Assembly: GCA_038062895.1 (NCBI GenBank) | Contig: JBBTWJ010000006.1 | Span: 48,862-112,861 of the forward strand | Direction: 5' to 3' | Source of the DNA: Patescibacteria group bacterium | GTDB lineage: Bacteria > Patescibacteriota > Microgenomatia > UBA10105 > UBA927 | DNA length: 64,000 nt | Part shown: positions 17,971-64,000 of the stretch, in pieces | How the letters are laid out: every line of letters starts with the position of its first letter | How positions within the stretch are numbered: position 1 is the first letter of the stretch | Position numbers and translations under genes: made by a program | The notes under the pieces: model-generated | The model's database searches: none | What the model saw: the letters and a program-made list of their open reading frames with translations, nothing else | What the model was told of the DNA's origin: nothing

Positions 17971-18058
17971 TATCCTTTCTATTAACCATAAATGAATATT
18001 CCCAGATAATCATCTCGTTCATGCGTATTTCATTCGAACGAAAATTCACTACCTGGCA
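17926..18058. repeat. inverted 18-bp repeat pair flanking the DUF4012 start region (same pair as at 32407-32584)
   Basis: ccaagtagtagattttcg (17926-17943) and gaaaattcactacctgg (18042-18058) are mutual reverse complements (2 mismatches); the right arm is identical to 32568-32584. Confidence 0.55.
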
Positions 18059-18099
18059 TAGCTAGTATTGTTCACATTTAGGAATAAATTGTCAATCTA

Positions 18100-34158: not shown

Positions 34159-34163
34159 GATTA

Positions 34164-34990: not shown

Positions 34991-34998
34991 CCACTTCT

Positions 34999-36174: not shown

Positions 36175-36189
36175 GGTTTCGTTTTTTTC

Positions 36190-36225
36190 AAGGTACTACC
36201 TTGCGGGATTGCAAGGTAGTACCTT
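36190..36225. repeat. perfect 14-bp inverted repeat hairpin (aaggtactaccttg-cgggattg-caaggtagtacctt)
   Basis: Read directly; lies in the 71-bp gap between the acetyltransferase stop and aminotransferase start; T-run precedes it on plus strand, no U-tract after the stem on the transcribed (minus) strand. Confidence 0.7.
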
Positions 36226-36245
36226 ATGAAATTACCCAAATGACA

Positions 36246-36788: not shown

Positions 36789-36793
36789 ACTTT

Positions 36794-46089: not shown

Positions 46090-46931
46090 TTCACAAGCTT
46101 AATACACGCTACAGCGCGGGATGCAGCGCAGTATGATTTTTCAATATGTTTCTGGGAATATCTCACGTGCGAACATTCCTTTTCTGTGGAAAGCTGCCAT
46201 CCGCTTTCATTATATTGATAATAACTTATATCAAATGATGAGGGATCAAACGCCTTAATGAGCTCTCGCACCATAGCTGTATCGAAAACCTGATACCAAT
46301 CATGATCTTCATATGCACCAAATGGAATCGTGATAAGGCAAATACCCTTTTTTATCAAAATTCTTTTGAATTCTTTCACAACCAATAGATAATCTTTTTT
46401 ATTCTTTTGCTTATAACCACCATCAGGTATGTAGATACTGTTGTCCATTCCAACATGCTCTAATACTGACACGCAGGAAATTGAATCAAAAAATCCGTCC
46501 GTAAATATTTTCTTCCTCAAATCTCCGAAAATATACGAAATATATTTATCTACATAACAATTTTTTTCTGGATTTAGATTAACAATAAATATTTTTAGGT
46601 TTCTTAGCTGATGACTCAAAAGTATGGTTCGAAAATTGAACGAAGCACCCGCATCTAAATGATTACCCTTACTTGGAAGATGGGAAATTGCCCAAGGTAT
46701 CTCAACAATTCTTTCGCTCAATCCTACTCCTAATTTAGGAGGTAACGATTTTTTGTATCTAAATAAATTTAGATCAAATGTAATCAATCTTTCCATCTCC
46801 ACAAATAAATGAGATACAAAAATAATTTCTCCAATCACAAAGGGAACCTTATTCCACCAAGGAAAAAATATATTGATAAAATCTCTTAGATAAATATAAA
46901 TAAATTCTTTGACTCCGTGGGTTACGCTCAT
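46086..46931 (-). CDS. hypothetical protein, SAM-methyltransferase-like fold
   Basis: 281 aa; LDAGAS...SVLEHVG pattern reminiscent of class I MTases; weak. Confidence 0.4.
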   Translation of the reverse strand: MSVTHGVKEFIYIYLRDFINIFFPWWNKVPFVIGEIIFVSHLFVEMERLITFDLNLFRYKKSLPPKLGVGLSERIVEIPWAISHLPSKGNHLDAGASFNFRTILLSHQLRNLKIFIVNLNPEKNCYVDKYISYIFGDLRKKIFTDGFFDSISCVSVLEHVGMDNSIYIPDGGYKQKNKKDYLLVVKEFKRILIKKGICLITIPFGAYEDHDWYQVFDTAMVRELIKAFDPSSFDISYYQYNESGWQLSTEKECSHVRYSQKHIEKSYCAASRAVACIKLVK

Positions 46932-49900: not shown

Positions 49901-50768
49901 CCCACTCTAATTTGCCTTGAGCTCCGAAAATAAAATCGCCTAAGAAACTTCCCGGAGTCAATATGCTCACTATTTGCGGTATGAGATGAAATGCCTGCAG
50001 AAGAACAAAAAGCACCAGGCCAACTGCAATTTTTGCTATCGGGATTGATTTCCTTTTTATATATTTGGTGTAAATGCCAAGAAACAGAACTGCGAGCGGG
50101 AAAAAAGAAAAAAATGTGGGAGAACCAATGAAACTAAAATTTGAAGAAAAAATAAATGTCACAAGGAGCGACACCAACAGGTATCTCATACCGCCGGTCA
50201 GAAAAAACCGCAAAAGGAGAAAAAACAATAACGGATTGAGAAAAACTACATTCATGGGCAAAAGTGGATACCCCCACCAATGAATAGGATTTGGAGAAAA
50301 TGTGTAATAAAGACCAGCGAGAATTCCCGATGTCTCTATTATTGATTGATTCGGCCTTACTGCTTCTTCCTCTCCTTTCAGGAGCTCCTTTACTACCAGA
50401 TAACAGGCAAAGAATCCAAGGCTTAGATTGAGCCCATGAAATATCGAAATAACTATTGTCGGGGAATGTACTATTGATTTAATAAATGCCAGGAGCAAAA
50501 AGAATGGAATCGCATAGTAGCTCAAATTTTCTCCCCCGAACGCCGAATGAGAAACGCTATATGTTGACTGGCTCAAAAGATACGCAATGGGATCATAAAA
50601 ATACAGTCTGCTGTTATCTCCTCCTAGATCCATTTCTCCCGGCTTAAGCCAGAAAAACGGAATGAAAAAAATCAGAATGGTTATGACAAAAACCAATAGC
50701 GAATAACGTGATATTTTCATGTTCGTAATTCCTGAATAATTCCAACGATCATAAAGAGAAATAACCAA
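46950..50768 (-). CDS. giant GT-C-like membrane protein (paralog 2; AftD/DUF3367-like architecture); probable start Met at 50720
   Basis: 1272 aa; N-terminal FWLKPGEMDLGGDNSRLYFYDP and RLPGFAMFRVFYGQWQWAYLFFY shared with 53368-55779 protein; ~14 TM then ~800 aa extracytoplasmic region and C-terminal TM anchor. Confidence 0.55.
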   Translation of the reverse strand: MVISLYDRWNYSGITNMKISRYSLLVFVITILIFFIPFFWLKPGEMDLGGDNSRLYFYDPIAYLLSQSTYSVSHSAFGGENLSYYAIPFFLLLAFIKSIVHSPTIVISIFHGLNLSLGFFACYLVVKELLKGEEEAVRPNQSIIETSGILAGLYYTFSPNPIHWWGYPLLPMNVVFLNPLLFFLLLRFFLTGGMRYLLVSLLVTFIFSSNFSFIGSPTFFSFFPLAVLFLGIYTKYIKRKSIPIAKIAVGLVLFVLLQAFHLIPQIVSILTPGSFLGDFIFGAQGKLEWGLKYFVATAPSIKVSYALLGLLQYTEPKFYWWIFILFPLLFVLGLLWNKSKLYLLSTIFFLITLFFVSANITHIGLKLYELAFRLPGFAMFRVFYGQWQWAYLFFYTVLVGLALSSVFTKIRAAERYVLTGFIVILLVSTSWQFISGQLTDTKLWQSKDIRSHIKMDPVYEDVLAFIRSLPVDGKILSLPLNDHGYQVLKGENDAAYIGPSTITYLAARNEFTSIAELGVFGESILAAAKEKNYTKLKNILIMLNIKYIFYNADPYIYGDNFPALPYTRARDFFPDTQEGYKEFIKGLGVKEIKTIANTFHIYEFDDTSYIPHIYTPKSIAYSGDVIAVNASTPVSFYTDKRVAFFDDSTIFNARQELFDTVLLKARNTSTIFDFFKKKKSDRFVSPTVSRKLSSFIYPLVVLREKRDLNRYGDINDAYIDRSIYFAEKRINELYELKDTPLRRNIASISQFAQQWREPTLWEFFKFSEYNSWEVTLARYQQAIKKIIIEIDSTNQSAYSRTTSKVELKTYLKEHKEKLRTAIRQDSSLNTEDRRYLSGLIDGMFIDIHNSLSLDLPDVGNIPYIVENPLPNGKYEVYVNKNDMDDLPIDLSVGGMKLSPMEAQYEEWLKYSDMQVENKQSLPLVLSIRSVPNLVAQTHWTVAEQISLGKEQGAIETDPVTLAVMYNFLSDTSGLLRDIPNWEGDTIYAISFDYLTNDQNFLMVLHEKGDTETNRFVNDAYEETIRSKEWRKFKVAVLSAKDASSASLQITRDLDDVVSQDEETIKKIEIKNLTVQKIYNPNIVLKSIPQSTISAIPRITFTQINPTKYTVEVRDAKGPYALVLSQSFNQKWKLFYPSLEHEAKTIKGMLARVVGGILGSVTKSIIPETTEGSNAIVASYANGAIQEGKHRIDFWNRDTFDTWGFDPIAEKSHLPVNGYANSWVIKPEDVNNRSDYTLIIEMTSQKLFYGSLLLSGFGLLIILFLCLKLFLRK

Positions 50769-51104: not shown

Positions 51105-52013
51105 CTATCCAGCATGGTGTTCCCACCACCGGCACTCATCTGCATACAGCTTCATACGTTCAAATGTTTCTTTCAGACCTTCCTCAATGGTGTACCGGGG
51201 TGTCCAGCCAGTGAGACGCTTCACCAGGGCTACATCGGCAGTAAAATTCATAGGGCCGGACACGGGCTTTTCCAAATCCTTAATCTTTTTACCGGATAAC
51301 TCCCCGATAATCTGCGCGATGCGACCCACGCTTACCGACTGTCCGGTGCCTAAATTCACCGGGCCGGTATAATCCGTTTCAAGCAGTTTGACGATCGCAT
51401 CAGCAGCATCCGGAGTATAGAGAAAATCACGAACCGGCTTGGTATTCCACAAGGTCACTTCATTTGGCGAAAGCGCCTGTTGGATGAGCGTCGGAACCAA
51501 ATCCGGTCTCACGAGTTTCGTCGGACCATAAATATTACTAAACCGGGCGATGATGCTGGGAATTTTCGAAGCATAAAAACGCACTAACTCCTCCGACAAA
51601 TATTTACTGAATACATAATCATTGATATAGGGATCAGTGGGCTGCGTCTCGTCAACCGGCAACTTCATTTTGTTCACGTCGTACAAGAGAATCGTGGAAA
51701 AACACATGAATTTCTTGATTGTTCTCTTTTGCAGGTAAAAAAGTATTTTTTTAAGAGGAAGGACGTTATACTCAAGTCCCATACTCGGCTTGGTATTAAT
51801 GATGTGGTGGTTAGAGCTGCCAACGAGAAAAATGACCTTGTCAAACTCCAGATCATCCAGAGCCGTCAGGTCATCAAGGCTCGGTAAAAAGACATGCTTG
51901 TTTTTAAGTTGCGCGGACAACGGACTGCGGCCAATGGAAATGATATCCGGATACTTTTCCAAAATGATCGGACCCAGGAAACCACTTCCCCCGAATAATA
52001 CGGTATTACTCAT
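51105..52013 (-). CDS. NAD(P)-dependent epimerase/reductase (SDR family)
   Basis: 302 aa; LFGGSGFLG Rossmann-like motif, YxxxK (YVFSK). Confidence 0.7.
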   Translation of the reverse strand: MSNTVLFGGSGFLGPIILEKYPDIISIGRSPLSAQLKNKHVFLPSLDDLTALDDLEFDKVIFLVGSSNHHIINTKPSMGLEYNVLPLKKILFYLQKRTIKKFMCFSTILLYDVNKMKLPVDETQPTDPYINDYVFSKYLSEELVRFYASKIPSIIARFSNIYGPTKLVRPDLVPTLIQQALSPNEVTLWNTKPVRDFLYTPDAADAIVKLLETDYTGPVNLGTGQSVSVGRIAQIIGELSGKKIKDLEKPVSGPMNFTADVALVKRLTGWTPRYTIEEGLKETFERMKLYADECRWWEHHAG

Positions 52014-52972
52014 ACTTTTGATGAGGCAGCTTCATAGTTCTGTTCAAACCACGAAATAGTTTTTTGTAAGCCCGTTGCCAGATCAAATGCTGGCTTCCAC
52101 TTCAGTTTCTCCTGCATGTGGGTAATATCACATACTTTGCGCAGTGCTCCATCCGGTCCGGACGTATTCCACTTAATCTCTCCAGAGTATCCGGAGATCT
52201 CCTTTATGAGTTCGGCAAGCTCGGCAATTGGCGTTTCCACTCCGGTACCGATGTTGAGGGGCATTTCCTCATCATAACGTTCTGCAGCGCTCAGAACCCC
52301 GTCCGCGGCGTCCTCAACATACAGGAGCTCCCGGATAGCCCGCCCGGATCCTAACACTTCCACAGACGGATCGCTACCACGCTTGGCATCGACAAACTTC
52401 TTGATAAGCGCGGAAGCGACATGGGACCGTTCGATACTAAAGACATCCCGCGGCCCGTACATGTTCGTCAAAAGGAGCGTAATTGAATTGAGGCCATATT
52501 GCTGCCGGTATGCGTTACTGCCTATATACATCGCGCGTTTCGAAAAACCATACGCCTCTACGCTTCTATGCATTGGTCCGTTCATAAACTCCTCCTCACG
52601 GAAATATCCGGTCGGAAGCTCTCCGGGATAGGCGCACGTGGAACCGATGTTTACCAGCTTTTCGGCATGAGATACATGCGCGGCTTTGAGAACATTGATA
52701 TTTATCCTCACATTGGTATCAAAAAGATCCGCAGGGTTTTTCAAAATGTTGAGAAGCCCACTGATAGCTCCTGCACAATTGATGACGAGATCCGGCTTCT
52801 CGCGGAGGAAATAATCGATACTCGCTTTTTCCTGGGTCAGATCAAGTTCCCCGTGCGACGGCGCAAGGAGATGAACGTCGAAACGTTCCAGTTTATCGGT
52901 TATGTGGCTTGCTAAAAATCCGCTTCCGCCTAAAAGGAGTACTTTTTTATTTTGTAATTTCATAATGACCAC
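52010..52972 (-). CDS. fcl: GDP-L-fucose synthase (GDP-4-keto-6-deoxy-D-mannose 3,5-epimerase/4-reductase)
   Basis: 320 aa; aligns with E. coli Fcl across length: VINCAGAISGLLNILKNPADLFDTNVRININVL...IGSTCAYP, KPDGALRKVCDIT. Confidence 0.8.
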   Translation of the reverse strand: MVIMKLQNKKVLLLGGSGFLASHITDKLERFDVHLLAPSHGELDLTQEKASIDYFLREKPDLVINCAGAISGLLNILKNPADLFDTNVRININVLKAAHVSHAEKLVNIGSTCAYPGELPTGYFREEEFMNGPMHRSVEAYGFSKRAMYIGSNAYRQQYGLNSITLLLTNMYGPRDVFSIERSHVASALIKKFVDAKRGSDPSVEVLGSGRAIRELLYVEDAADGVLSAAERYDEEMPLNIGTGVETPIAELAELIKEISGYSGEIKWNTSGPDGALRKVCDITHMQEKLKWKPAFDLATGLQKTISWFEQNYEAASSKV

Positions 52973-52979
52973 CGTATAT

Positions 52980-53336
52980 TCATTCTCTCCATTTTTGATA
53001 TATGCCTAAAACCAAAAATAAATACAACCACACCGCAAATCGTTCTACCGCCGGAACCAGCGGCTGATAGAAAAGCAATGGATCTGTCCACAAGTACATC
53101 ACATAGGTCAAAATGAGTAACAATAACGAAAAAAGAAGGGTCACCGTGCTCGTCAGCGCGAAACGCTTAATCAGATAAAAGAAAAATAAGAGTATGCCGA
53201 ATATCCGTATGTCAGAACTGATGGGAAAAAGAATAACATCACCCATGATGAGGACAAAAACCGGTATCAGGAAAAATAATTTATTCTTCTTGATAAAACC
53301 GATGCTTTTCGTGATAAATCCTGTTATTGCCCGCAT
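52980..53336 (-). CDS. small 4-TM membrane protein (paralog of 50717-51085)
   Basis: 118 aa; see paralog. Confidence 0.5.
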   Translation of the reverse strand: MRAITGFITKSIGFIKKNKLFFLIPVFVLIMGDVILFPISSDIRIFGILLFFFYLIKRFALTSTVTLLFSLLLLILTYVMYLWTDPLLFYQPLVPAVERFAVWLYLFLVLGIYQKWRE

Positions 53337-53367: not shown

Positions 53368-55779
53368 TCACTTTTTCCTTAAAATGGATGCCCCGTAGAG
53401 CAAAAAAACGCATATCGCCACTATCGAAATGGCAGCACTGTAATAAAATACCCGTTGTTCAACCATCTCGACGATTATTTCATACTGCTCTCTACCCGAA
53501 CTATCTTCTGGCGTGATATACCATGCATTCGCATACCCGTTCACCAAAAAATGCTGATTGTCCGGAATACTTGGCATACCCAATGTTTCAAACGTTTTGG
53601 CATTCAGAAAAATATCATCATGCGCAGACTCGCGAATGCTTCCGTCAAAATAACTCCCATTTACCTGCAACTCTTCACCTTCTTTCTTCGATATATAGAG
53701 CTTCCAGCGAGAGTGATATTTATCAGAAAATACGAGGGTATACGGATTTCGCGCTCCAGATACTTGCACTCTATATTTTGTAGGGTTTATCCGTTTGTAG
53801 GTTACGACCGGCAGACCTCCTGTCGTCTCTATGGCATGTTGTGTACACGTTTGCGCTGTAAATACACTGTCACAAACAGTACGCTCTACAAATGCTACTC
53901 TCGGTTCGCTTAATGGTGTGGTAAAAAATGACGCATAATCCGGCTCTTTTTTCTCTTGCGTATCAAACGGATACACGGTGGCCGGAATATAGAAACGGGG
54001 AAGATATTCTTTCACATCTGCTTCCAATACGCGGTAGTATCCCTGTTCAAATATTTTTGGCCCCGCGATAGACCCAACCAAATCCGCAAGCGCCTTGTCA
54101 TCCGGAACAGCTTCAAGAAATAGTCCGTATGGGAAGGCGGGAAAAAATTGCTTATACGCCTTCGGGTCTGCGCTATAAAAAATATATTTGACGTTGAGCA
54201 AACCGAGTAAACGTCTGACCGCACCATAATTTTTATCTTTAATTAATTGAAGAAATAAATTGGAAAAAGGAGCAATATCCTGATATCCGCTATAATCGTG
54301 TCTTCCGGTAAGGTATGCAGTAGGAGATACGCCGATATATGCCCCGTTATTCGTCCCTGCGATAAGCTGATATGCGTAATCGGTAAACGGAAAATTAATG
54401 ATTTTTCCATCGTCCGGTATTGCTTTAAGGAATGCAAGCGATTGTTCATAATCTGGATTTATTTTCATAATGTTCGTCATATTGTTTGAACCCCAAAGAG
54501 GCGCTTTGAGAAGGTCACCACTGATAAACGTCCAACTGCTGTAGATAAAAAATCCGGCGATGATGACCGACAACACATAGACAGAACGTAAACGTAATTT
54601 AGCAAATACTACGAAAGACAAATAGCCGAATAATACCGAATAAAAAAATGCATAGACCCATTGCCACTGACCATAAAACACCCGGAACATACCAAATCCA
54701 GGGATGGAGAATAGCTTCCTATAGATCTCCACGCCAAGTTGGGTGATATTAGCCGATGTCAAAAACAGCGTGACGAAAAAAAATGAAGTCAGAAGGGCAA
54801 GGTCTCTCCCGATCCGTTTACTCAACAAATATCCCAGAATTATCATAAGAGGCACCGCTAAGGTGGCCCATCGAACCTCGGGCAAGGAATACGTATAAAA
54901 TATGTTTTTACTCACCTTGCCAAGACCCAACACCGCATTAAAATAATTTAATCCTTCATTTTTCGCAGCCGTTGCTTCGAGCAGTCGCTGGCCTAAATAG
55001 CTGCTTTTATCAAACGTATAGGAAACTACCGGAATGATGTGAAACGCATGGATACCCAAAAAGAGAATGACCCCAATGAATATATATTTCCAGGGTAATG
55101 ACTTTTTTATGACAAATTTCACATAGAGAGCCAAAAAACAAAGCGCTAATGGGTAAAAAGCAAAAAGAGGTGGCGGCGCGATTAACGTAAAATTCGGAGA
55201 AAAAAGAAAGGTGACCAATAGTGTGAGCCACAAATATTTAGCGTTATCCGTAAACAAAAATTTCATTATCAGATAAAACATCACGGGGTTGAGGAATACC
55301 TGGTTATGCGTGAGAAGTGCCGCATGCATATTAGCCCCGACACTCGGAGAGAACGTATAAAAAAGTCCGGCCAATATTCCGGCTAAATCAGCTTGCGACT
55401 CCTTCGATTTGTCAACATGAGGCTTGAGCATCTCAACGACGATAAGATAGACAAAGAAAAAAGCCCCGACGAGCTTAAGCGCGTTTGATACATTGATCAG
55501 AAGATACGGCGAATGGAAAATGGAATCGATTATTTTAAGTACAAAAAGATAGGGGATAAGATTCTGATTCGGAGCTACTACGCCGTTATTGCCGGGTTGA
55601 ACGCTATATAAGCTCGTCGATCGCAGGAACGCTCCTGGGTCATATAAATACAACCTGCTACTGTCCCCCCCTAACTCCAACTCGCCGGGCTTGAGCCAAA
55701 GAAAAGGAAGAAGAAATAAAAGGATACAAATTACCCAAAGCGTTATTTTTACCCTGAAAATCGACGCATAACTTGCCAT
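53368..55779 (-). CDS. large GT-C-like membrane protein (paralog 3)
   Basis: 803 aa; LWLKPGELELGGDSSRLYLYDP, SIPGFGMFRVFYGQWQWVYAFFY; same architecture as 46950-50768 protein with shorter extracytoplasmic region. Confidence 0.55.
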   Translation of the reverse strand: MASYASIFRVKITLWVICILLFLLPFLWLKPGELELGGDSSRLYLYDPGAFLRSTSLYSVQPGNNGVVAPNQNLIPYLFVLKIIDSIFHSPYLLINVSNALKLVGAFFFVYLIVVEMLKPHVDKSKESQADLAGILAGLFYTFSPSVGANMHAALLTHNQVFLNPVMFYLIMKFLFTDNAKYLWLTLLVTFLFSPNFTLIAPPPLFAFYPLALCFLALYVKFVIKKSLPWKYIFIGVILFLGIHAFHIIPVVSYTFDKSSYLGQRLLEATAAKNEGLNYFNAVLGLGKVSKNIFYTYSLPEVRWATLAVPLMIILGYLLSKRIGRDLALLTSFFFVTLFLTSANITQLGVEIYRKLFSIPGFGMFRVFYGQWQWVYAFFYSVLFGYLSFVVFAKLRLRSVYVLSVIIAGFFIYSSWTFISGDLLKAPLWGSNNMTNIMKINPDYEQSLAFLKAIPDDGKIINFPFTDYAYQLIAGTNNGAYIGVSPTAYLTGRHDYSGYQDIAPFSNLFLQLIKDKNYGAVRRLLGLLNVKYIFYSADPKAYKQFFPAFPYGLFLEAVPDDKALADLVGSIAGPKIFEQGYYRVLEADVKEYLPRFYIPATVYPFDTQEKKEPDYASFFTTPLSEPRVAFVERTVCDSVFTAQTCTQHAIETTGGLPVVTYKRINPTKYRVQVSGARNPYTLVFSDKYHSRWKLYISKKEGEELQVNGSYFDGSIRESAHDDIFLNAKTFETLGMPSIPDNQHFLVNGYANAWYITPEDSSGREQYEIIVEMVEQRVFYYSAAISIVAICVFLLYGASILRKK

Positions 55780-55784: not shown

Positions 55785-56942
55785 TTATGCAAAAGAAAAC
55801 ATGGAAGGATAAATTTTTTTGTAATAAAATTTCTGACTCAACGTATAAGCATTCTTACTATAAAAAGAATATCTCGAAATAATTTTTTTGACCGCCTCAA
55901 CAAAAGCACGGGGATCTTTAGAGTTGATAACAATGCCAGCCTCTGTTTTTTCCACTTCTTCGGCAAATTCTAATATATCCGTGGTAATAACGGGCATCCC
56001 CAAACTCAAATAGCGTTTGATCTTCCCAGGATCACCGTAATGTGAAACGTTACTTACGTCAGAATCGTATGTGGCGATACCAATCGAACATTTTTTCAAA
56101 ACTTCATTGAACGACTCTCCCTCTAAATATCCGTAGAAGGTAGTATTTATTTTTGATTTTTTAGCCCTTTCTTTAATGTAATTCTCATCAGGACCTGATC
56201 CAATAATCTCATATCCTACATCTCCAAATTCATCCAGCAACGTATCATCATTGTCAAAAACAGTGACGACCCCTTGACTCTTTTTTAGCACGCCGATAAA
56301 CCCAAACACGATTCTATCGGGCTTATACTTCTTTATGAACGGAAATCTATCAGTCCCAATCGGTATAATTTTATGCTTTGCGTTTTTCTGAAAAATACCT
56401 ATATCTTTCCGTAAATTTAACAGGCGTCGGTTTACAAACGTAACTGTGTCCGAATAAGAACTAATTTTATCGAATTGCCAATAAATAAAACGCATCAACA
56501 TCACGATTTTATTTTCATGTAGCGGAGGATAATAATCCCATACCCAAAATATAGTTTTATCAACAACTCCAATTCCCTTCAAAAGACTTCCTATCCAAGC
56601 GGTGAAGGCATTAACCGTAAAGTATATATCTATAGAATTGTATTTCATCCTCAACCAAGATGAAAATAGAATCACTTCCAAACAGGTAATGATGGATCGT
56701 ATCGGAATTAACAAAAATACAAATTTTTGAATGAGGGGTATTTGAAATAATGAAAATGTCCTCTGAAGGTTACCGTCAAAATATATCTCGAGTGTATTAT
56801 AATTTCTTTTGTTCCGTAAATTATGAAAACCAATAGAAAAAACAAAAACTTTCTGAAAATTTTCTACTATATAATCCAAAATTTTCCCAGAATTTTCATA
56901 CGGAGAATAATTTACATATATAATGGATTTGCTTCTTCTCAT
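55785..56942 (-). CDS. glycosyltransferase (GT-B fold, GT1/GT4-like, divergent)
   Basis: 385 aa; C-terminal region with GYLEGESF...IATYDSDVS..GDPGKIKRYLSLGMPVITTD resembling Glycos_transf_1. Confidence 0.55.
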   Translation of the reverse strand: MRRSKSIIYVNYSPYENSGKILDYIVENFQKVFVFSIGFHNLRNKRNYNTLEIYFDGNLQRTFSLFQIPLIQKFVFLLIPIRSIITCLEVILFSSWLRMKYNSIDIYFTVNAFTAWIGSLLKGIGVVDKTIFWVWDYYPPLHENKIVMLMRFIYWQFDKISSYSDTVTFVNRRLLNLRKDIGIFQKNAKHKIIPIGTDRFPFIKKYKPDRIVFGFIGVLKKSQGVVTVFDNDDTLLDEFGDVGYEIIGSGPDENYIKERAKKSKINTTFYGYLEGESFNEVLKKCSIGIATYDSDVSNVSHYGDPGKIKRYLSLGMPVITTDILEFAEEVEKTEAGIVINSKDPRAFVEAVKKIISRYSFYSKNAYTLSQKFYYKKIYPSMFSFA

Positions 56943-56965
56943 AGGAATGATGGAATGATATCATA

Positions 56966-57982
56966 ATGGTGTTGAAGAATATATCGTATAAACAACAAAA
57001 AACTATGTTAAAAAAGAAAACTGCGTTGGTAACCGGAGCTGGCGGATTTATTGGACATCACCTGGTAAAATTTCTTCAAGAAAAAGGGTATTGGACAAGA
57101 GGTGTTGATCTAAAGAAACCAGAATTCGAAAAAACTTCTGCGGATGAATTCAAACTTCTTGATCTCCGCGAAAAAAATAATGCATTGAAAGCCGTTCAGG
57201 ATATGCAATACGTGTTTAACCTTGCGGCAAATATGGGTGGCGTAGGCTTCATAGAAACAGTTCATGCAGAAATAATGCACGATAACCTTCTGATTGACGC
57301 GAACATGATAGATTCAGCCTATACTGCTCAAGCGGAACGCTACTTCTATTCCTCATCCGCATGCATATATCCTATAAACAAGCAGACAGAAGTTAAAAAC
57401 AACGGACTGAAAGAACATGACGCCTATCCCGCAAATCCGGACAATGAGTACGGTTGGGAAAAAATTCTTGCTGAACGATTATGCCTTAACTATCATCAGG
57501 ATTATAACTTTGAAGCCCGTATTGCTCGATTTCATAATGTCTTCGGACCCTTAGGAACATGGCAGGGAGGAAGAGAAAAATCTCCCGCCGCTCTTTGCAG
57601 AAAAATTGCTCTTGCAAAAAGCGGTGATGAAATAGAAGTATGGGGCGACGGCAAACAAACAAGATCATATTGCTTTATCAATGACTGCCTTGAAGGTGTT
57701 TACAAACTTATGATGTCAGATATCCATGAACCTCTGAACATCGGATCTGATAAAGATATCTCCATTAATGATTTAATTGATACTATCGCCCATATTGCAG
57801 GTAAAAAAATTAAAAAACGATATAACAGGCAAAAACCACAAGGAGTAAGAGGAAGAAACTCAGACAATACATTAATGAACAAATACTTTCACTGGGAGCC
57901 TTCTACATCACTTATAACAGGGTTAACAGAGACATACTCGTGGATCCTAACGCAAATACAACAAGGTAAACTCCAAAAATAG
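56966..57982 (+). CDS. GDP-mannose 3,5-epimerase (GME; GDP-L-galactose/GDP-L-gulose forming); probable start Met at 57005
   Basis: Aligns nearly end-to-end with plant/bacterial GME: NLAANMGGVGFI, YSSSACIYP, FHNVFGPLGTWQGGREKSPAALCRK, GVRGRNSDN. Confidence 0.85.
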   Translation: MVLKNISYKQQKTMLKKKTALVTGAGGFIGHHLVKFLQEKGYWTRGVDLKKPEFEKTSADEFKLLDLREKNNALKAVQDMQYVFNLAANMGGVGFIETVHAEIMHDNLLIDANMIDSAYTAQAERYFYSSSACIYPINKQTEVKNNGLKEHDAYPANPDNEYGWEKILAERLCLNYHQDYNFEARIARFHNVFGPLGTWQGGREKSPAALCRKIALAKSGDEIEVWGDGKQTRSYCFINDCLEGVYKLMMSDIHEPLNIGSDKDISINDLIDTIAHIAGKKIKKRYNRQKPQGVRGRNSDNTLMNKYFHWEPSTSLITGLTETYSWILTQIQQGKLQK

Positions 57983-58000
57983 GGCTTACATATTTTTTAT

Positions 58001-58681
58001 ATGTTAAGAGTAAGTTTTTTGTCTTCAGGTTCGGGATATACAACCGCAACGATACTCCACGCAATACAAAAAGGCGTCTTGACGAATATTATTCCGGTTA
58101 GCATAATATCCGACAGAGAAAGCAAGTCATTAGACTTGGCTTCCAAATTTCACATCATACCTCATGTAGTAAATTATCACGATGCAAGTTCACGAGAGGA
58201 ATTTTCTGACAACATTTTACATATTTTCAAAAAAGAGAGCATTGATGTTTCTTTTTCGACGTTTGATCGAATATTATCCGGAAAGATACTTCATAGCTAC
58301 AAAAATAGACTTATCAATATTCACCCGTCTCTTCTCCCCTCTTTTCCCGGCTATGGCACCACAGCTCAAGCCATAAAATACGGCTCTAAATTTATCGGAG
58401 CTACATGCCATTTCATCGACGCTGAAATAGATCATGGACCAATCATTAATCAGGCAATTCTGCCACTCAATGATAACGAAAATCTCGATTCAATTAATCA
58501 AAAATTATATAAATTGAAGCAACAGTTAGCCTTAGAATCGCTCTATGCATTTTGTACTAATCTGATTACTGTCAAAGACAGATACGTTAAAATAAAAACC
58601 GCTCAATATGATAGTTTGCCAGTCAATCCAACCTTAAACTTGCCTCAAATCATTGATTTTTTGCGTACGTATGACAAATAA
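58001..58681 (+). CDS. formyltransferase family protein (putative NDP-amino-sugar N-formyltransferase)
   Basis: 226 aa; Formyl_trans_N motifs INIHPSLLPSFPG and HFIDAEIDHGPIINQ (catalytic His/Asp) as in PurN/ArnA-N/WbkC-type enzymes; located in sugar cluster. Confidence 0.75.
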   Translation: MLRVSFLSSGSGYTTATILHAIQKGVLTNIIPVSIISDRESKSLDLASKFHIIPHVVNYHDASSREEFSDNILHIFKKESIDVSFSTFDRILSGKILHSYKNRLINIHPSLLPSFPGYGTTAQAIKYGSKFIGATCHFIDAEIDHGPIINQAILPLNDNENLDSINQKLYKLKQQLALESLYAFCTNLITVKDRYVKIKTAQYDSLPVNPTLNLPQIIDFLRTYDK

Positions 58682-59372
58682 GATTGCGATACTACAGCCA
58701 TCTTATATACCGTGGCTTGGTTATTTTGATCAAATCAACAGAGTTGATACATTTATTTTTTATGATGATGTTTTATATACTAAAAATGACTGGAGAAATA
58801 GAAATAAAATCAAAACACCAAGTGGTGTTTCCTGGCTAACTATACCTGTTACTATCAAAAATAGACTAAAAGATTATCTACTGATCAAGGATGTAATGAT
58901 CATTGATCCAAATATTTTAAAAAATCATTTAAAAACAATTGAATTTAATTACAAAAAAAGCCCATTTTTCCAAGATTTTTATTCAACAATAGCTCCCATC
59001 TTTAATACGGAGTATCACCTATTAGCTGACCTAAGCATAGATATTATTAAAACGGTTTGCGAATATATAGGCCTCAAAGGTAAAAATTTATTACGAAGCT
59101 CCGATTTAGGCATTGTTGGCACAAATCCCACGGATAGATTAATAAATCTATGTAAGAAATTCGAGGCTACCAATTATTTATCATCGGATAATTCTAAAAA
59201 TTACCTTAAGGAAAAAATGTTCGAAGAAAATGATATTATCCTTGAATATCAAAAATACAGTCATCCGAGATATAAACAGTCATGGGGCGACTTTGTTCCC
59301 TATTTATCAATAATTGATCTAATTTTTAACGAAGGACCAAAATCATTAAGTATTTTATCTAATAATGTATAA
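58671..59372 (+). CDS. WbqC-like family protein
   Basis: ORF 58653-59372; likely start MTNKIAILQPSYIPWLGYFDQI matches WbqC-like N-terminal signature; commonly co-occurs with sugar formyl/aminotransferases. Confidence 0.65.
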   Translation: MTNKIAILQPSYIPWLGYFDQINRVDTFIFYDDVLYTKNDWRNRNKIKTPSGVSWLTIPVTIKNRLKDYLLIKDVMIIDPNILKNHLKTIEFNYKKSPFFQDFYSTIAPIFNTEYHLLADLSIDIIKTVCEYIGLKGKNLLRSSDLGIVGTNPTDRLINLCKKFEATNYLSSDNSKNYLKEKMFEENDIILEYQKYSHPRYKQSWGDFVPYLSIIDLIFNEGPKSLSILSNNV

Positions 59373-60375
59373 GCATATATTTATTACCGGAGCAGGCGGA
59401 TATATTGGCTCCAAAATGGTTTCCTTCTTTCTTGAAAAAGGATTTTTTGTGACTGCGCTAGACAAATTTTTTTTCGGTAACGTATTGAATGATTTAAAAG
59501 AAAATAAATCATTAAACATCATTAATGGAGATATCAGATTATTTGATAAAAAAGTGCTGAAAAATGTAGACGTTGTCGTTGATTTAGCCGCAATTTCAAG
59601 TGATCTTGCTTCTGAACTTAATCCTACACTCACACACGAAATTAACTGTGAAGGCGCCATGCGGGTTGCCCGACTTGCCAAAGAAATGATGGTTAAAAAA
59701 TACATTTTTTCATCTTCCTGCAATGTCTATGGAGCAGGGAATGATATTTTTGATGAGACTTCCCAATTCCATCCTATTGGATCCTATGCAATAAGCAAGG
59801 CAGAGGCCGAAAAAAAACTTTTAAAACTTGCTGATGACAATTTCACTGTGACGATAATGCGAAATGCACCGGTATATGGATTATCTGAAAGAAGAATGCG
59901 ATTTGATCTTATCGTAAATATTATGACTCTGCATGCTATGAAGCATAATACAATTAGAATTTTTAATGGTGGAAAACAATGGCGCCCCTTAATTCATATC
60001 AATGACTGCATCACTGCATTTTTATGTATCATCATGGAAAATGATTTAATAAAAATTCAGCGACAAATTTTTAATGTAGGTTCGAATGGACAAACATATC
60101 AAATGTACGAAATTGCAGCAAAAATTAAAAAATATTTCCCGAATGTAGTAATAGAGAATGTGCCAGGTTACCACGATAAGATCAGTTATCGCGCTGATTT
60201 TGATAAAATCAAGAATGTATTACATTTTCGGACGAAAAAATCAATTGACGATGGCATTATAGAAATAAAAAATGCCATAATAAAGGGAATTATTCGAGAT
60301 AATACGGAAACCCGAATATTTGAACGCTATCAATACCTTCTTTCAGAAAAAAAATTGACTTCGTTCAATGGGTAA
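59365..60375 (+). CDS. NAD-dependent epimerase/dehydratase (putative NDP-hexose 4,6-dehydratase)
   Basis: 336 aa; ITGAGGYIGS Rossmann motif, S...YxxxK (YAISK). Confidence 0.75.
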   Translation: MYKHIFITGAGGYIGSKMVSFFLEKGFFVTALDKFFFGNVLNDLKENKSLNIINGDIRLFDKKVLKNVDVVVDLAAISSDLASELNPTLTHEINCEGAMRVARLAKEMMVKKYIFSSSCNVYGAGNDIFDETSQFHPIGSYAISKAEAEKKLLKLADDNFTVTIMRNAPVYGLSERRMRFDLIVNIMTLHAMKHNTIRIFNGGKQWRPLIHINDCITAFLCIIMENDLIKIQRQIFNVGSNGQTYQMYEIAAKIKKYFPNVVIENVPGYHDKISYRADFDKIKNVLHFRTKKSIDDGIIEIKNAIIKGIIRDNTETRIFERYQYLLSEKKLTSFNG

Positions 60376-60380
60376 AAAAC

Positions 60381-61526
60381 ATGATAAAAAAAGAAATACA
60401 ATTTTACAAACATAATATAGGAGTTGAGGAAATAAACGCAGTTACTGAAGTACTTCGATCACCTTTTCTTACCACCGGAAAATACGTAGATCTGTTTGAA
60501 GAAAACTTTGCCAAATATTTGCAAACTCACTTCGCTGTAGGGCTTACAAGCTGTACTGCAGCACTTCATTTATCCCTATTAGCAGCCGGAGTTAAGCCAG
60601 GTGATGAGGTGATTACCACTCCCCTGTCATTTGTTGCAACTGCAAATTCCATTTGTATGGTGGGAGCAACGCCAATTTTTGTCGACGTAGAAAAAGATAC
60701 TGGGAATATAGACGCTGATCTCGTCGAAAAAGCTGTAACCCAAAAAACTAAAGCTATTCTGCCGGTTCATTTGTACGGACAAATGGTTAATATGAAAAAG
60801 ATTTTACGTATTGCGCATAAGCGCAATATAAAGGTGATTGAAGATTCTGCTCATGCGTTAGAGGCACAGCGGGACGGAGTAAAACCCGGACAAAAATCAT
60901 TTGGTTCGTGTTTTAGTTTTTATGCAACAAAAAGTATAACGTCCGCCGAAGGAGGAGCTTTCACAACAAACGATGAGTCAATCGCAAAACTTGTAACAAA
61001 GTTTAGGTCTCACGGAATAACAAGTGAACTTGCCCAGAGAGAAAGAACTGGATTAAAAACATATGATGTCGATGTCTTAGGATGGAAATACAATATGAAT
61101 AATATTCAAGCAGCACTACTCATTCCCCAAATTAGAAAAATAGAAAAACAATGGAACCAAAGAGAAAAAATTGCAAATAAATACAGAGAAGCATTCACAA
61201 AGTTTGCCATAGAAATGCCGCGGGAATATAATAACTCAAAACACGGAAGACACATATTTCCGATCTGGGTTTCAGCTCAAAAAAGGGACAAAATATTAGA
61301 ATACATCAATGACCATGGCGTCGGAGGCGTGATCAACTATCCCGCTATTCATCTATTTTCATTTTATAAAAAGACTTTCGGTTTTCACGAGGGAATGTTT
61401 CCAAATGCAGAAAAGATTGCAAAACAAACCATCTCTCTTCCGCTCTATCCAAAATTGACAGAAGAAGAAACAGATTATGTAATAAAGATTGTTAAACAAG
61501 CAGTTGAAACCTCGGTCAAAAATTGA
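60381..61526 (+). CDS. DegT/DnrJ/EryC1/StrS family PLP-dependent sugar aminotransferase
   Basis: 381 aa; GDEVITTPLSFVATAN, EDSAHA, SFYATKSITSAEGG. Confidence 0.9.
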   Translation: MIKKEIQFYKHNIGVEEINAVTEVLRSPFLTTGKYVDLFEENFAKYLQTHFAVGLTSCTAALHLSLLAAGVKPGDEVITTPLSFVATANSICMVGATPIFVDVEKDTGNIDADLVEKAVTQKTKAILPVHLYGQMVNMKKILRIAHKRNIKVIEDSAHALEAQRDGVKPGQKSFGSCFSFYATKSITSAEGGAFTTNDESIAKLVTKFRSHGITSELAQRERTGLKTYDVDVLGWKYNMNNIQAALLIPQIRKIEKQWNQREKIANKYREAFTKFAIEMPREYNNSKHGRHIFPIWVSAQKRDKILEYINDHGVGGVINYPAIHLFSFYKKTFGFHEGMFPNAEKIAKQTISLPLYPKLTEEETDYVIKIVKQAVETSVKN

Positions 61527-61565
61527 CACCATTATCAAATTCATCGCTCATATTGAAATGCTTAC

Positions 61566-62312
61566 CTATTTATTATTCAAATAAATTGTATTTAATCCGT
61601 TGTCATAATATTCTTTATATCTATTATTTCTCATTAATGAATCTATTCTAACTTTTTTACTGGATCTTTTACCTGTTATCATTAAATTAAAATCTCCCGT
61701 TTCGACGCAAACAACGGTAGGTCTAAATTTTTTCCAATTATTACTTTCCAAAACTTCAAAATCCAATCCTTCTGTATCAATCGATAGGAAATCTATTTTT
61801 GCAGTACAATATTTCTCGATTACACTTTTTAACGTAAATACGGGAATTTCCAACTCTTGTTTTAACTTATATCCTAATTTTAAATTACTTGCCCTCTCGT
61901 CTTTAGAAAAAGTTGACAAACCGTCAACTTCAAATTCATAAAATGAAGCAATACCTGAAGTATTTTTAATCCCAATATTTAAATTAATATCTCTTTTCCG
62001 TTGCCTTATAAATTCCTTTAATAATATTGGGTTTGGCTCTATGTTTATACCGCTCCATCCTTTGAGATAAAACTTTTTTGTATTATTAAAAATATTTGGG
62101 TTATGTGCCCCGATATCGATATAAAAACCCTTCTTTTTCTGACCAATAACCCTTTCAATAATCAAATCTTCGCCTTTTTGACTAAATGACCCCTTTAAAT
62201 ATTTTTTAATAAACGTATCATTAAGTGCCTTAATAATAAATACAAAAAAAAATATAAAACCCCGCTTTTTGTATATTGATATAAATTGTCTTATAAGTGC
62301 CCTTGCATTCAT
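61566..62312 (-). CDS. FkbM family methyltransferase
   Basis: 248 aa; GFYIDIGAHNP and IDFLSIDTEGLDFEVL motifs of Methyltransf_21. Confidence 0.8.
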   Translation of the reverse strand: MNARALIRQFISIYKKRGFIFFFVFIIKALNDTFIKKYLKGSFSQKGEDLIIERVIGQKKKGFYIDIGAHNPNIFNNTKKFYLKGWSGINIEPNPILLKEFIRQRKRDINLNIGIKNTSGIASFYEFEVDGLSTFSKDERASNLKLGYKLKQELEIPVFTLKSVIEKYCTAKIDFLSIDTEGLDFEVLESNNWKKFRPTVVCVETGDFNLMITGKRSSKKVRIDSLMRNNRYKEYYDNGLNTIYLNNK

Positions 62313-62950
62313 TTATTTTTTGTGGCTACAACGATAAATCCTTTTGATATGCTCCAAAATATCGGCATTCTCTGAATTAACTTTATACCAAAAGATCGTA
62401 TAAAGGGATTGAAAAAACCTCTACTACCGCATCCCAAGTAAGCAGCCTTCTCGTCGGGAAGATGAAAATAATATTCACAAGGATATTGGTTGAATAATTT
62501 TTTCATTCCAAAATATGATCTTGAATACGAACAGTCCTTATAGGATCTACCCTTCCCTGTAATACGCAAATACCTATCAGCAATAGAGAGAGGCACCCAG
62601 CCTAGGAAGGGCAACCCATAATGAGATTCAAACAACCACCACTTGTTTGGCGCGGTAACATAAACCATTCCGCCCGGCTTAAGTAAGGAGAATATTTTTT
62701 TGAATGATCTTTCCACATGAGACATATGTTCCACGGTGGTGAGGCTAACTATTAAATCAAAAGTCCCTTTTGTATGAAAATCTTCGACTTTACAGTTATA
62801 AAAATTAATTCTAGATTTTCTTATGCTCTTGCTTTTGATCGCGACGTTATACACTTTCTTATATGGTTCTATCCCGATTACCTCTTTAACATATTTTCCA
62901 AGTTCAAACGAGTACTCGCCCCAACCCGATCCAACATCTAATACTCGCAA
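62309..62950 (-). CDS. class I SAM-dependent methyltransferase (TTG start as drawn)
   Basis: 213 aa; motif I RVLDVGSGWGEY right at N-terminus; VSLTTVEHM; start codon at 62950-62948 is TTG; an upstream out-of-frame 46-codon ORF (63078-62938) could indicate a frameshifted N-terminus. Confidence 0.7.
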   Translation of the reverse strand: MRVLDVGSGWGEYSFELGKYVKEVIGIEPYKKVYNVAIKSKSIRKSRINFYNCKVEDFHTKGTFDLIVSLTTVEHMSHVERSFKKIFSLLKPGGMVYVTAPNKWWLFESHYGLPFLGWVPLSIADRYLRITGKGRSYKDCSYSRSYFGMKKLFNQYPCEYYFHLPDEKAAYLGCGSRGFFNPFIRSFGIKLIQRMPIFWSISKGFIVVATKNK

Positions 62951-63238
62951 ATCCTTAGCTTTTTTTGTAATCGCTTTTCCGCGATGATGAGGATCTCCCT
63001 TACCGTTGCTGCTATGACTGAGTGGGGAATTTGAGAGGGTAAAATATCTCTGAAGTACTCTTGTTTAAAGTTATTCATTTCTTGATACTTAAATTAATTT
63101 TCCTAAATCTACCATCATATTCGATTTGATGGTATGCCTATAACGGTGCCTACCATTTTAATCTTTAACCTTAAATAAGTAAAGATAATCATCTATAAAT
63201 CTGGTAAATAACCGAACAATATGATATAAATCTAGGTT

Positions 63239-64000
63239 ATGTTTCTTTATAGTTTGTTTGTTCCACTTTTCTCCTTCATCTTGCAGGTATGGCCCCGTTT
63301 AATAAATCGATATTTTGGAATAGATACATGGCGGCATTTATTACTTGCTGACTATGTACGAAGATATCATAAAATTCCGACCGTACTAGAAGAACAATAT
63401 ATTCGTTCTTCTGGAGATCCGGGATATCCCCCGGTAATTTACCTTATCTTATCAAGATTTAGCAAGGGTTTTACCGAACGATATCAATTTATATTTGCAC
63501 CATTTTTTGACGCAATTCAAAATTATTGCATCTTTTGGTTTGCCTATCTGATTACGAACGACATTACCTCGGCAATCTGTGCCCAAGTTATCGCAGCGCT
63601 CACGCCAATTGCAGTTATTGAAGCAAGCAATCTAAGCACAAGAACTCTCAGTTATCTGATTTTTACTCTATCCTTTCTGTCTCTTGTTATATTTTCCATC
63701 ACCAATTTATATATTTGGCTATTTATAGCATTTGTCATGTTAATAGTGCTTTTCCTAACACATAAATTTGCTATTCAAGCGTACCTATTTATATCGACAG
63801 GATTTTCCATAGCGGAGAAGGACCCTTTCTATATTTTATTTTTTCTTGGTACATTTATTTTTATGTATACTGTAATGAAAAAAATTTATAGGCCGATTTT
63901 GAAGGAACATATGTTGATCCTTTCTTTCTGGAGAAGAAACATATCTGATAGATTTATCCATCAATTTAGAGGACATTCTAAATCGGATCAAGTGAAAGAT
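63239..64000 (+). CDS. polytopic membrane protein, N-terminal part (possible oligosaccharide repeat-unit polymerase/other glycan membrane protein), runs off window end
   Basis: Not in supplied track because it is open to the window edge; translation from ATG 63239: MFLYSLFVPLFSFILQVWPRLINRYFGIDTWRHLLLADYV... with at least 6 hydrophobic helices, no stop before 64000. Confidence 0.45.
   Translation, partial: MFLYSLFVPLFSFILQVWPRLINRYFGIDTWRHLLLADYVRRYHKIPTVLEEQYIRSSGDPGYPPVIYLILSRFSKGFTERYQFIFAPFFDAIQNYCIFWFAYLITNDITSAICAQVIAALTPIAVIEASNLSTRTLSYLIFTLSFLSLVIFSITNLYIWLFIAFVMLIVLFLTHKFAIQAYLFISTGFSIAEKDPFYILFFLGTFIFMYTVMKKIYRPILKEHMLILSFWRRNISDRFIHQFRGHSKSDQVKD

Follow-up and report, generated by a model that had tools for sequence, protein, structure and literature searches.

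Which sugars would the AT-rich block in a bacterial surface-glycan locus add to the cell, and did that block originate where it now lies? The question is raised by a 64-kb window (the whole stretch of DNA that was analyzed, 64,000 nucleotides of contig JBBTWJ010000006.1), which is chromosomal DNA of an uncultivated member of the Patescibacteria (candidate phyla radiation, CPR) from Hainich groundwater. Patescibacteria are uncultivated episymbionts whose surface glycans probably mediate host attachment and whose sugar chemistry is, to our knowledge, almost entirely undescribed. On balance, and with restrained confidence, the window is read as holding part of a ~12-kb, compositionally foreign glycan-decoration cassette that lies within a CPR surface-glycan locus, with two putative sugar-nucleotide routes: one through a GDP-mannose 3,5-epimerase (GME), the other through four genes encoding a formyltransferase, a WbqC-family protein, a short-chain dehydrogenase/reductase (SDR) and a DegT-family aminotransferase.

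Extent, composition and origin of the low-GC block

In 2-kb sliding windows, the GC content lies at 0.43-0.50 over 1-45 kb and at 0.33-0.36 from ~55 kb to 64 kb. Gene by gene, the 39 genes in 1-45.5 kb have a mean GC of 0.455 and a mean GC at third codon positions (GC3) of 0.456, compared with 0.341 and 0.305 for the eight genes in 55785-62950 (Mann-Whitney, p = 1.2e-7 for GC and 1.4e-5 for GC3), which individually range over 0.28-0.39 and 0.23-0.37. A preliminary description of this DNA, made from the letters alone, had singled out the interval 56966-62950 (GC 0.345) and placed the beginning of a compositional shift at the strand switch near 56.95 kb. The shift itself is present in both the windowed and the per-gene values, whereas its onset lies one gene ahead of the strand switch, at 55785, where a minus-strand glycosyltransferase gene (GC 0.333) opens the block. 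At the other end, low-GC DNA passes 62950, fills the window (in-window part, 55785-64000) and continues for ~4 kb more on L083, a copy of the contig that reaches farther, where GC is back to 0.46 past position 19000, equivalent to window coordinate ~67.7 kb. Delimited in this way by gene GC and GC3, the right border on L083 and tetranucleotide frequencies, the block extends from 55.8 to ~67.7 kb. Its part beyond the window encodes the rest of a protein of 500 amino acids (aa), a 766-aa protein and a third methyltransferase, and is followed on L083 by an SDR gene, at which GC returns to 0.46, and then by RmlC- and RmlD-like genes. Identical proteins and contigs were located in the ENA assemblies ERZ1292628 and ERZ1292630 and in the Logan assemblies of ERR3858120 and ERR3858121.

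Five related Patescibacteria loci (L086, L087, L089, L090 and L091), recovered via the WbqC and formyltransferase proteins, have the same gene order as the block at 51-83% protein identity and are uniformly low in GC, at 0.29-0.37 across their full 9-17 kb including flanks. The tetranucleotide composition of the island correlates with that of these loci at 0.94-0.97 and with that of the native part of the window at 0.72-0.85, whereas the thirds of that native part correlate with one another at 0.90-0.94. Codon usage likewise departs from the native part and resembles that of the low-GC relatives, with island versus native fractions of 0.48 versus 0.14 for AGA among Arg codons and of 0.17 versus 0.41 for ACG among Thr codons. 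Additionally, SDR321, the native SDR gene that borders the island on its downstream side, shares 69% identity with its counterpart in L087 but has a GC of 0.48, while island genes of comparable divergence lie at 0.28-0.39. Combined, these results support but do not prove a lateral origin of the block, as the preliminary description had suggested from the compositional shift; most likely, the block was brought in from a low-GC relative by recombination. No integrase, tRNA or flanking repeats were found at the island borders, and synteny with the relatives continues to the left of the island, through the genes for 1272-aa, 122-aa and 803-aa proteins, suggesting that homologous recombination was the mechanism and that the block is likely a cassette replacement within a conserved glycan locus. 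Homologous recombination in such a locus would leave no mobility hallmarks.

Several points weigh against this reading of the origin. The lack of mobility hallmarks is itself one of them; the compared loci are homologous, so that their tetranucleotide similarity is partly inflated, and glycan loci are often AT-rich without recent transfer. The missing mobility genes, tRNA and repeats and the synteny on the left side, along with the low coverage of the metagenome assembly (cov 5-6), would also suit an alternative without any lateral transfer, in which the block would be a chimera of two related populations or the product of a locus-specific AT bias and the formyltransferase would simply be the organism's PurN. 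This alternative appears very improbable. Both junctions are contained in L083, where the low-GC block has higher-GC DNA on either side, and two shorter contigs from other assemblies carry one junction each, for which reason an assembly chimera was judged unlikely. The difference in codon usage is strong, and the native flanking gene of like protein divergence has kept a high GC. Finally, the formyltransferase scores under the PurN cutoff, has lost the phosphate-loop motif for glycinamide ribonucleotide (GAR), overlaps the WbqC gene translationally and belongs to a clade that is confined to this module, as set out below.

A GDP-mannose 3,5-epimerase and a proposed four-gene amino-sugar cassette

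The first plus-strand gene of the block (56966-57982, with an alternative start at 57005 that gives a 325-aa form, as called in relatives) matches the Arabidopsis thaliana GME (PDB 2c59) at E = 1e-98, and of the 313 aa aligned 49% are identical; the next family in the PDB search is GDP-fucose synthase at 5e-27, and 4-epimerases follow at 4e-20 or weaker. The residues that are diagnostic of GDP-mannose 3,5-epimerases (GM35E) are the triad S143/Y174/K178, the acid-base pair C145/K217, R306, R243 and N203 of the Arabidopsis enzyme (PMC8787198), and all eight are kept in the window protein. Its triad is S131, Y162 and K166; its acid-base pair, C133/K205, has the Lys and not the His of GMER/Fcl; the acidifying Arg at R297 (R306) is not replaced by Lys; and R233 and N191 correspond to R243 and N203. 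Judged by these residues, the gene encodes a genuine GDP-mannose 3,5-epimerase. The preliminary description had made the same call and named the loss of the catalytic Cys and Lys together with a grouping among ordinary 4-epimerases as what would speak against it; both residues are retained, and the protein is far nearer to GM35E than to the 4-epimerases.

The formyltransferase (58001-58681), WbqC (58671-59372), SDR (59365-60375) and DegT (60381-61526) genes follow on the plus strand. The WbqC start overlaps the formyltransferase stop by 11 nucleotides, the WbqC stop overlaps the SDR start by 8, and five bases separate the SDR stop from the DegT start. The same order is kept in L086, L087, L089 and L090, while L091 has the GME, formyltransferase and WbqC genes and the start of the SDR gene, inside which its contig ends. 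Given the overlapping start and stop codons and the kept gene order, the four genes form a translationally coupled unit. Scans of the DNA returned promoter matches that were not above shuffled expectation and no clear operon terminator. The cassette is present without the GME in L086 and is therefore an independent unit; the GME co-occurs across loci with both of the SDR types described below, which favors two parallel sugar-nucleotide routes over one linear pathway. A single linear GDP-sugar pathway in which the GME would feed the cassette was accordingly down-weighted. All of the genes that the preliminary description had named in this region (GME-like, Formyl_trans_N, WbqC, SDR, DegT, FkbM and class I S-adenosylmethionine (SAM) methyltransferase) are present where it had put them and belong to the Pfam families that it had given. 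An antisense 122-aa open reading frame (ORF) at 59355-59723 lies entirely inside the WbqC and SDR genes and is probably spurious.

The formyltransferase (Pfam Formyl_trans_N, 1e-28) is derived from PurN and yet is not PurN, a refinement of the PurN-like label that it had been given. It scores 129.3 bits with the NCBIfam PurN model (TIGR00639), short of the cutoff of 150.1, and its best PDB match is the PurN of Aquifex at 1e-33; PurNs span 1e-33 to 1e-18, and the solved sugar N-formyltransferases, at 1e-10 to 1e-6 (29-43 bits), lie well under them. In an alignment of 12 members of its clade with 11 canonical PurNs, the catalytic N106, H108 and D144 and the INIHPSLLP motif are invariant, while the GSN loop of PurN has become G-x-[L/T/I]-T (SGSGYTT in the window protein), AGFMR has become T-FDR with one residue deleted, and the Glu-His pair has become [K/R]-Q. 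In PurN, the GSN loop (GxGSN) and the Glu-His pair bind GAR through its phosphate and ribose. A neighbor-joining tree recovers the clade as monophyletic; it is sharply bounded, with ~25 clusters of homologues at identities of at least 49% followed by a gap down to at most 40%, and it is very rare: an exhaustive HMMER scan of 1.84 billion representatives returned only one full-length protein (P0133) and one fragment above the PurN background. For 14 clade members, the longest carrying contig equals in size that of a close WbqC homologue, and in six of six loci inspected the formyltransferase gene adjoins or overlaps WbqC in a glycan operon. From these sequence features we conclude that the enzyme is probably a recruited PurN paralogue with a new acceptor, presumably the N-formyltransferase of the amino-sugar cassette, dependent on N10-formyl-tetrahydrofolate. 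A housekeeping PurN was rejected in view of the missed cutoff, the replaced acceptor motifs and the sugar-operon context. L088, a Patescibacteria locus less closely related to the others, has a GNAT acetyltransferase in place of the formyltransferase upstream of WbqC, which argues that the slot holds an N-acylating enzyme; in other phyla, the slot holds LbH acetyltransferases or small methyltransferases. By analogy, this pattern of occupants would fit an amine-modifying role for the formyltransferase.

The SDR had been labeled a dehydratase, and this label does not hold. The protein is an extended SDR of a family with the motif [S/A]SSC[S/N][V/I]YG; it reads SSSCNVYG compared with STDEVYG in RmlB, so that Cys-Asn stands where dehydratases have Asp/Ser-Glu. 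Counted from the catalytic Ser/Thr, the acid/base signature is T-D-E in RmlB and S/T-x-E in Gmd, and S-C-N in the window protein. It misses all dehydratase cutoffs by far: the models for dTDP-glucose dehydratase (TIGR01181) and CDP-glucose dehydratase give it 75 and 29 bits, where 365 and 278 are required; Gmd was not among the listed families. Its best PDB match, by 11 orders of magnitude, is 6vo6 (1e-31, residues 1-304, ~30% identity), which, judged by its PDB molecule name, we take to be the C. jejuni enzyme Cj1427. The latter, a C4-dehydrogenase, oxidizes GDP-heptose and frees a 4-keto sugar without dehydration (PMC10680097). The family consists of ~340-aa proteins in Patescibacteria, Bacteroidota and Nitrospirota, with S-C-[S/N] in 99 of 120 members (the search pattern was unmatched in the other 21), and of three unrelated genomes that were examined, two (one from a Bacteroidetes, one from another Patescibacteria) have a member directly upstream of DegT with no dehydratase nearby.

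The window-type SSSC SDR is also found in L089 and L091, whereas the same slot in L086 (8698-9729), L087 (8698-9729) and L090 (6039-7109) is occupied by a non-orthologous, RmlB-like enzyme that aligns only partially with the window SDR, at 24-33% identity. These RmlB-like enzymes match 6bi4 at 8e-72, score 316-319 bits with TIGR01181, read STCEVYG with Cys or Ser for the canonical Asp, carry a C-terminal extension that ends in ...DG.I.YH and share up to 57% identity with the SDRs found alongside WbqC in Acidobacteriota and Nitrospirota. Because an RmlB-like enzyme alternates in the slot and the SDR family of the window precedes DegT elsewhere, the job of the slot would be to provide a keto-sugar for DegT, with two different enzymes apparently able to fill it. 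The window SDR itself most likely oxidizes its substrate without removing the C6 hydroxyl, although this assignment is loosely held. The natural exchange of an RmlB-like enzyme with a Cys-containing SDR, of a type that recurs upstream of DegT genes, is of enzymological interest.

The DegT/DnrJ/EryC1 aminotransferase, which is dependent on pyridoxal phosphate (PLP), is a secure family member, as had been stated (PF01041, 387 bits, 1e-115), and the PLP-lysine motif FSFYATKSITSAEGG is present in its translation. Its closest solved relatives are sugar aminotransferases of several kinds (ArnB 4lc3 at 2e-69, QdtB at 5e-61 and perosamine synthetase at 9e-55), and it remains under the NCBIfam cutoffs of both PseC (360 bits versus 423) and ArnB (290 versus 631). 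Since no equivalog cutoff is reached, its substrate and regiochemistry are not fixed by the family match.

The WbqC-like protein is confirmed as a member of PF08889 (253.4 bits compared with a gathering score of 21.3), a family with no assigned function (PMC5532660). The start at ATG 58671, giving 233 aa, is backed by gene callers and homologues, while the ORF list used at first had TTG 58653; the identical protein at NCBI is labeled 'WbqC family protein [Patescibacteria group bacterium]'. More than 7900 homologues were found at <1e-10, and the WRNRN, DDV and HPxYxQ motifs, along with invariant His, Asp, Cys and Ser residues, are common to 12 of them that were compared. A PDB search with the sequence gave no match. 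The AF2 model has a pLDDT of 90.6, and a fold search against solved structures returned nothing significant (best E 0.015, TM <=0.45); a faint likeness to HUP-class enzymes (TyrRS, NMNAT and cytidylyltransferases) recurs in it, also not significant. A survey of WbqC neighborhoods in 80 genomes from many phyla found DegT in 46 loci, dehydratase-like SDRs in 27, small methyltransferases in 22 and LbH acetyltransferases in 17. The commonest neighbor, present in 48 of 74 loci and adjacent in 31, is a GT2 of the ArnC/DPM1 type that bears membrane helices at its C terminus; radical-SAM enzymes and GT-C-like membrane proteins also occur near WbqC, and a formyltransferase beside it is rare among the genomes sampled. 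The locus offers a compact, defined context for testing the function of the WbqC family.

Two side observations concern the spread of this family. Five unnamed viral proteins in BFVD (A0A6J4EHY4, A0A6B9SW24, A0A6B9STS8, A0A411BJX6 and A0A1B0Z0N5) have the WbqC fold (Foldseek probability 1.00, TM 0.51-0.78, 12-24% identity), from which it follows that the family is carried by viruses too. In L088 (1-16708), the GNAT and WbqC genes are flanked by GT2 and GT-C-like genes (PMT_2/TMEM260, YfhO), and many type IV pilin-like (N_methyl) genes in a long row, with a prepilin peptidase, lie beside them, which hints that a WbqC-dependent sugar decorates pili in that lineage.

Taken as a whole, the four-gene cassette would produce an N-formylated amino-sugar nucleotide. 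The SDR would convert an NDP-sugar to a keto-sugar, probably without 4,6-dehydration, DegT would transaminate this product, the PurN-derived enzyme would transfer a formyl group from N10-formyl-tetrahydrofolate to the new amine, and WbqC would contribute an accessory step. The sequences show the identities of the genes, their catalytic residues, the structure of the operon, the conservation of the module and its foreign composition; in what order the steps run, which nucleotide carries the sugar, where the amino group sits, whether C6 loses its oxygen and what part WbqC plays are inferred.

Competing routes to the amino sugar

The preliminary description, whose gene list is largely correct and whose suggestion of transfer is plausible, contained one wrong enzyme assignment that alters the predicted product. 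It had proposed that a 4,6-dehydratase, a 4-aminotransferase and an N-formyltransferase act in the classic succession to give an NDP-4-formamido-4,6-dideoxyhexose, as for N-formylperosamine (Qui4NFo would be another such sugar); in this form the proposal loses its support with the dehydratase label, and no Gmd or RmlB orthologue was found anywhere in the 64-kb window, so that a 4,6-dideoxy product is unproven. The route could nevertheless operate if the window SDR did act as a dehydratase or if RmlB or Gmd were encoded elsewhere in the genome, which they could be. The enzymes in the slot of L086, L087 and L090 do resemble dTDP-glucose 4,6-dehydratases and belong to an SDR family that is found with WbqC in other phyla, and the window DegT is 81-83% identical to the DegT of precisely these loci, a hint that it receives the same 4-keto-6-deoxy substrate. 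This hint weighs against a non-dehydrating route in the window, as do the low identity between the window SDR and 6vo6 and the tentative identification of 6vo6 as Cj1427; moreover, the best DegT matches are UDP- and dTDP-sugar enzymes, whereas the GME and ManC suggest GDP as the carrier. Even so, the low and partial identity of the window SDR to the RmlB-like enzymes, its Cys-Asn (Cys-Ser in the family) in place of Asp/Ser-Glu and its low dehydratase scores count against the classic route, and even the sister-locus enzymes read STCEVYG rather than STDEVYG. It is thus considered a serious but unlikely alternative to non-dehydrating oxidation by the SDR. More doubtful still is a scheme after the Arn pathway, in which a transient formylation would drive an unfavorable transamination, WbqC would be the analogue of the deformylase or act in a lipid-linked-sugar step, and a free or methylated cationic amino sugar would end up in the glycan. 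ArnB enzymes are the best solved relatives of DegT, the ArnC/DPM1-like GT2 and GT-C-like membrane proteins recur around WbqC, and WbqC has its invariant His, Asp, Cys and Ser; the island and its closest sister loci, however, have a GT4 and no ArnC-like GT2, the SDR is without the Ser-Glu and Arg signature of the decarboxylase, and no hydrolase fold was detected for WbqC. We rate this scheme as quite improbable.

A further possibility, though an improbable one, is that the cassette imitates a step of purine synthesis: WbqC would link glycine or another amino acid to the amino sugar through an amide bond, and the PurN-derived enzyme would formylate the glycyl amine, giving an N-formylglycyl-amino sugar. 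That the formyltransferase descends from PurN instead of the sugar enzymes of Fmt/ArnA type would then be explained, as would the GNAT or LbH acetyltransferases at its position in other loci, and the faint likeness of WbqC to ATP-using HUP-class enzymes would have a meaning. The wbq genes that gave the family its name are, according to the literature, those of E. coli O121, the O-antigen of which contains amide-linked N-acetylglycine (PMC7685785). When six concatenated gammaproteobacterial WbqC genes were compared with all complete E. coli genomes, no match was obtained, so this lead comes from the literature alone, and the connection of WbqC with the glycyl group in O121 is itself putative. 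Furthermore, the fold likeness is not significant (E >=0.015, TM <=0.45), no ATP-binding motif was identified in WbqC, the acceptor-site residues of PurN are changed, and many WbqC loci have a small methyltransferase or no acyltransferase at all. If this idea were correct, the GAR-to-FGAR step of purine synthesis would be recreated on the 4-amino group of a sugar nucleotide, PF08889 would gain a function as an amide ligase, and an acetyltransferase replacing the formyltransferase would account for the N-acetylglycyl-Qui4N that occurs in E. coli O121 and in Shigella dysenteriae 7.

The surrounding glycan locus and comparison with known systems

The remaining genes of the block would serve to install and methylate its sugars, a task predicted for the glycosyltransferase, two or three methyltransferases and large membrane proteins. 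The GT4-family (Glycos_transf_1) glycosyltransferase (55785-56942, minus strand; PF13692 and PF00534), divergent from the operon, is kept at the same position in all five related loci at 53-72% identity. Downstream of DegT, on the minus strand, both of the methyltransferases that had been reported are confirmed by Pfam: an FkbM-family enzyme (61566-62312; PF05050 at 4.5e-24 and TIGR01444 at 51.2 bits, above the cutoff of 37.7), which is found downstream of DegT in all sister loci with contigs that extend so far, and a class I SAM-dependent enzyme (62309-62950; Methyltransf_11, _25 and _23), with an orthologue at 69% identity in L086. The plus-strand gene at 63239-64000 is the 5' part of the 500-aa protein, which runs off the window (gene calls on L083 and L002), has no Pfam match and is 52-69% identical to its counterparts in L086, L087, L089 and L090; the 766-aa protein and another methyltransferase follow outside the window.

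The core cell-wall genes murB, murE and rsmH lie at the 5' end of the window, and nearly all genes from ~15 kb on concern glycan biosynthesis. Among its products are an initiating transferase (Bac_transf), a ManC-like protein, many glycosyltransferases of the GT2 and GT4 types, a PMT-type GT-C enzyme, GalE, a second DegT-family aminotransferase together with an LbH acetyltransferase, methyltransferases and several very large proteins that match nothing in Pfam. At 15931-18738, the gene for a DUF4012 protein (679 aa) adjoins those for the initiating sugar transferase and ManC-like enzyme, and it is probably with this group that the pathway of glycan assembly begins. The ManC-like mannose-1-phosphate guanylyltransferase (18741-19823, minus strand, outside the island; NTP_transferase and ManC_GMP_beta-helix) scores 225 bits with TIGR01479, under the cutoff of 373, and could supply GDP-mannose for the GME. 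An Fcl-like GDP-L-fucose synthase (52010-52972, minus strand, GC 0.49, also outside the island) matches PDB 8du0 at 1e-52 and scores 238 bits with NF047922, under the cutoff of 500. Both genes are thus present, as had been noted; the supply of GDP-L-fucose that had been proposed on this basis has its synthase but no Gmd partner in the window, which leaves that branch incomplete within the window.

The Fcl-like gene is part of a GC-rich islet (51105-53336, GC 0.46-0.49) together with a 302-aa SDR whose best PDB match is a GalE-like enzyme at 5e-19; the islet interrupts genes that adjoin each other in the sister loci, and no Gmd is nearby. The GC-rich native part of the locus has an amino-sugar gene set of its own at 33184-37525, with a true GalE (414 bits, over the cutoff of 262), the second DegT (34999-36174), which is ArnB/PseC-like and 39% identical to the island DegT, the LbH acetyltransferase (36246-36788) and a GT2. 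Adjacent to it, a separate low-GC patch (37541-38817, gene GC 0.385 and 0.353) encodes an AbiEii-type nucleotidyltransferase toxin (PF08843, 3e-22) and, upstream of it, a 191-aa protein without a Pfam match that is probably its antitoxin, so that the patch looks like a small mobile toxin-antitoxin insertion. A lone gene of very low GC (46086-46931, GC 0.335, GC3 0.29) stands among GC-richer genes; its methyltransferase match is marginal (E 0.001), and no counterpart was found in the sister loci.

Six large proteins (728, 1272, 803, 1060, 500 and 766 aa; 43903-46089, 46950-50768, 53368-55779, 26524-29706 and L083:14569-18416) gave no match in Pfam, and loosening the scan to E values up to 5 for those of 728, 1272, 803 and 500 aa still gave nothing. 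The 803-aa and 766-aa types are distant paralogues of one another, at 34% identity via L091.

From this locus, a CPR cell is predicted to bear L-galactose or L-gulose and a methylated, N-formylated amino sugar, and the locus suggests that such decorations move between lineages as a cassette. A sugar-pathway formyltransferase that was recruited from PurN, and not from the Fmt/ArnA lineage, would be of enzymological interest, and a compact bacterial GME is of practical interest for L-sugar production.

Compared with characterized systems, the window GME shares the catalytic triad, the Cys/Lys pair, the acidifying Arg, the diphosphate-binding Arg and the conserved Asn with the GM35Es of Arabidopsis (PDB 2C59) and Methylacidiphilum fumariolicum; unlike them, it lies in a CPR glycan-decoration operon, and its operon partners have no counterpart in the plant ascorbate pathway. 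The formyltransferase has the length, fold family and catalytic Asn/His/Asp of PurN (TIGR00639), but it lies in a sugar operon, belongs to a distinct, rare clade and has its acceptor motifs replaced. With WbkC (GDP-perosamine), WbtJ/VioF (dTDP-Qui4N), QdtF/WlaRD (3-amino sugars) and the N-terminal domain of ArnA, it shares the superfamily, the catalytic triad and a context with a DegT aminotransferase and a keto-sugar-forming SDR alongside. The characterized sugar N-formyltransferases are of the Fmt/ArnA type, often with extra C-terminal domains, whereas the window enzyme is a single-domain PurN derivative. With ArnA/ArnB (UDP-L-Ara4N/UDP-L-Ara4FN), the cassette has in common the predicted C4 oxidation of an NDP-sugar, ArnB-like transamination and N-formylation; it differs in an SDR without the decarboxylase signature, in a PurN-type formyltransferase that is not fused to the SDR, in the lack of ArnC, ArnD and ArnT equivalents in the island and in the additional WbqC gene.

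The window SDR resembles Cj1427 in that the dehydratase Asp/Glu pair is missing in both, and the release of a 4-keto sugar is the role needed in its slot. The two differ in motif (SSSCNVYG compared with NTNSGYG) and are only ~30% identical, the use of alpha-ketoglutarate and the tightly bound NADH of Cj1427 are not inferable for the window SDR, and the downstream partner in the window is an aminotransferase rather than an epimerase or reductase. The window WbqC is a clear member of the family that includes the WbqC in the O-antigen cluster of E. coli O121, likewise encoded in a glycan cluster with an aminotransferase alongside, but it is coupled to a formyltransferase. A laterally exchanged cassette for amino-sugar and L-sugar decoration is a known kind of system, which is encountered here in an unusual form: its formyltransferase derives from PurN and is partnered by WbqC, the SDR assigned to keto-sugar formation is interchangeable, and the genome is that of a CPR bacterium.

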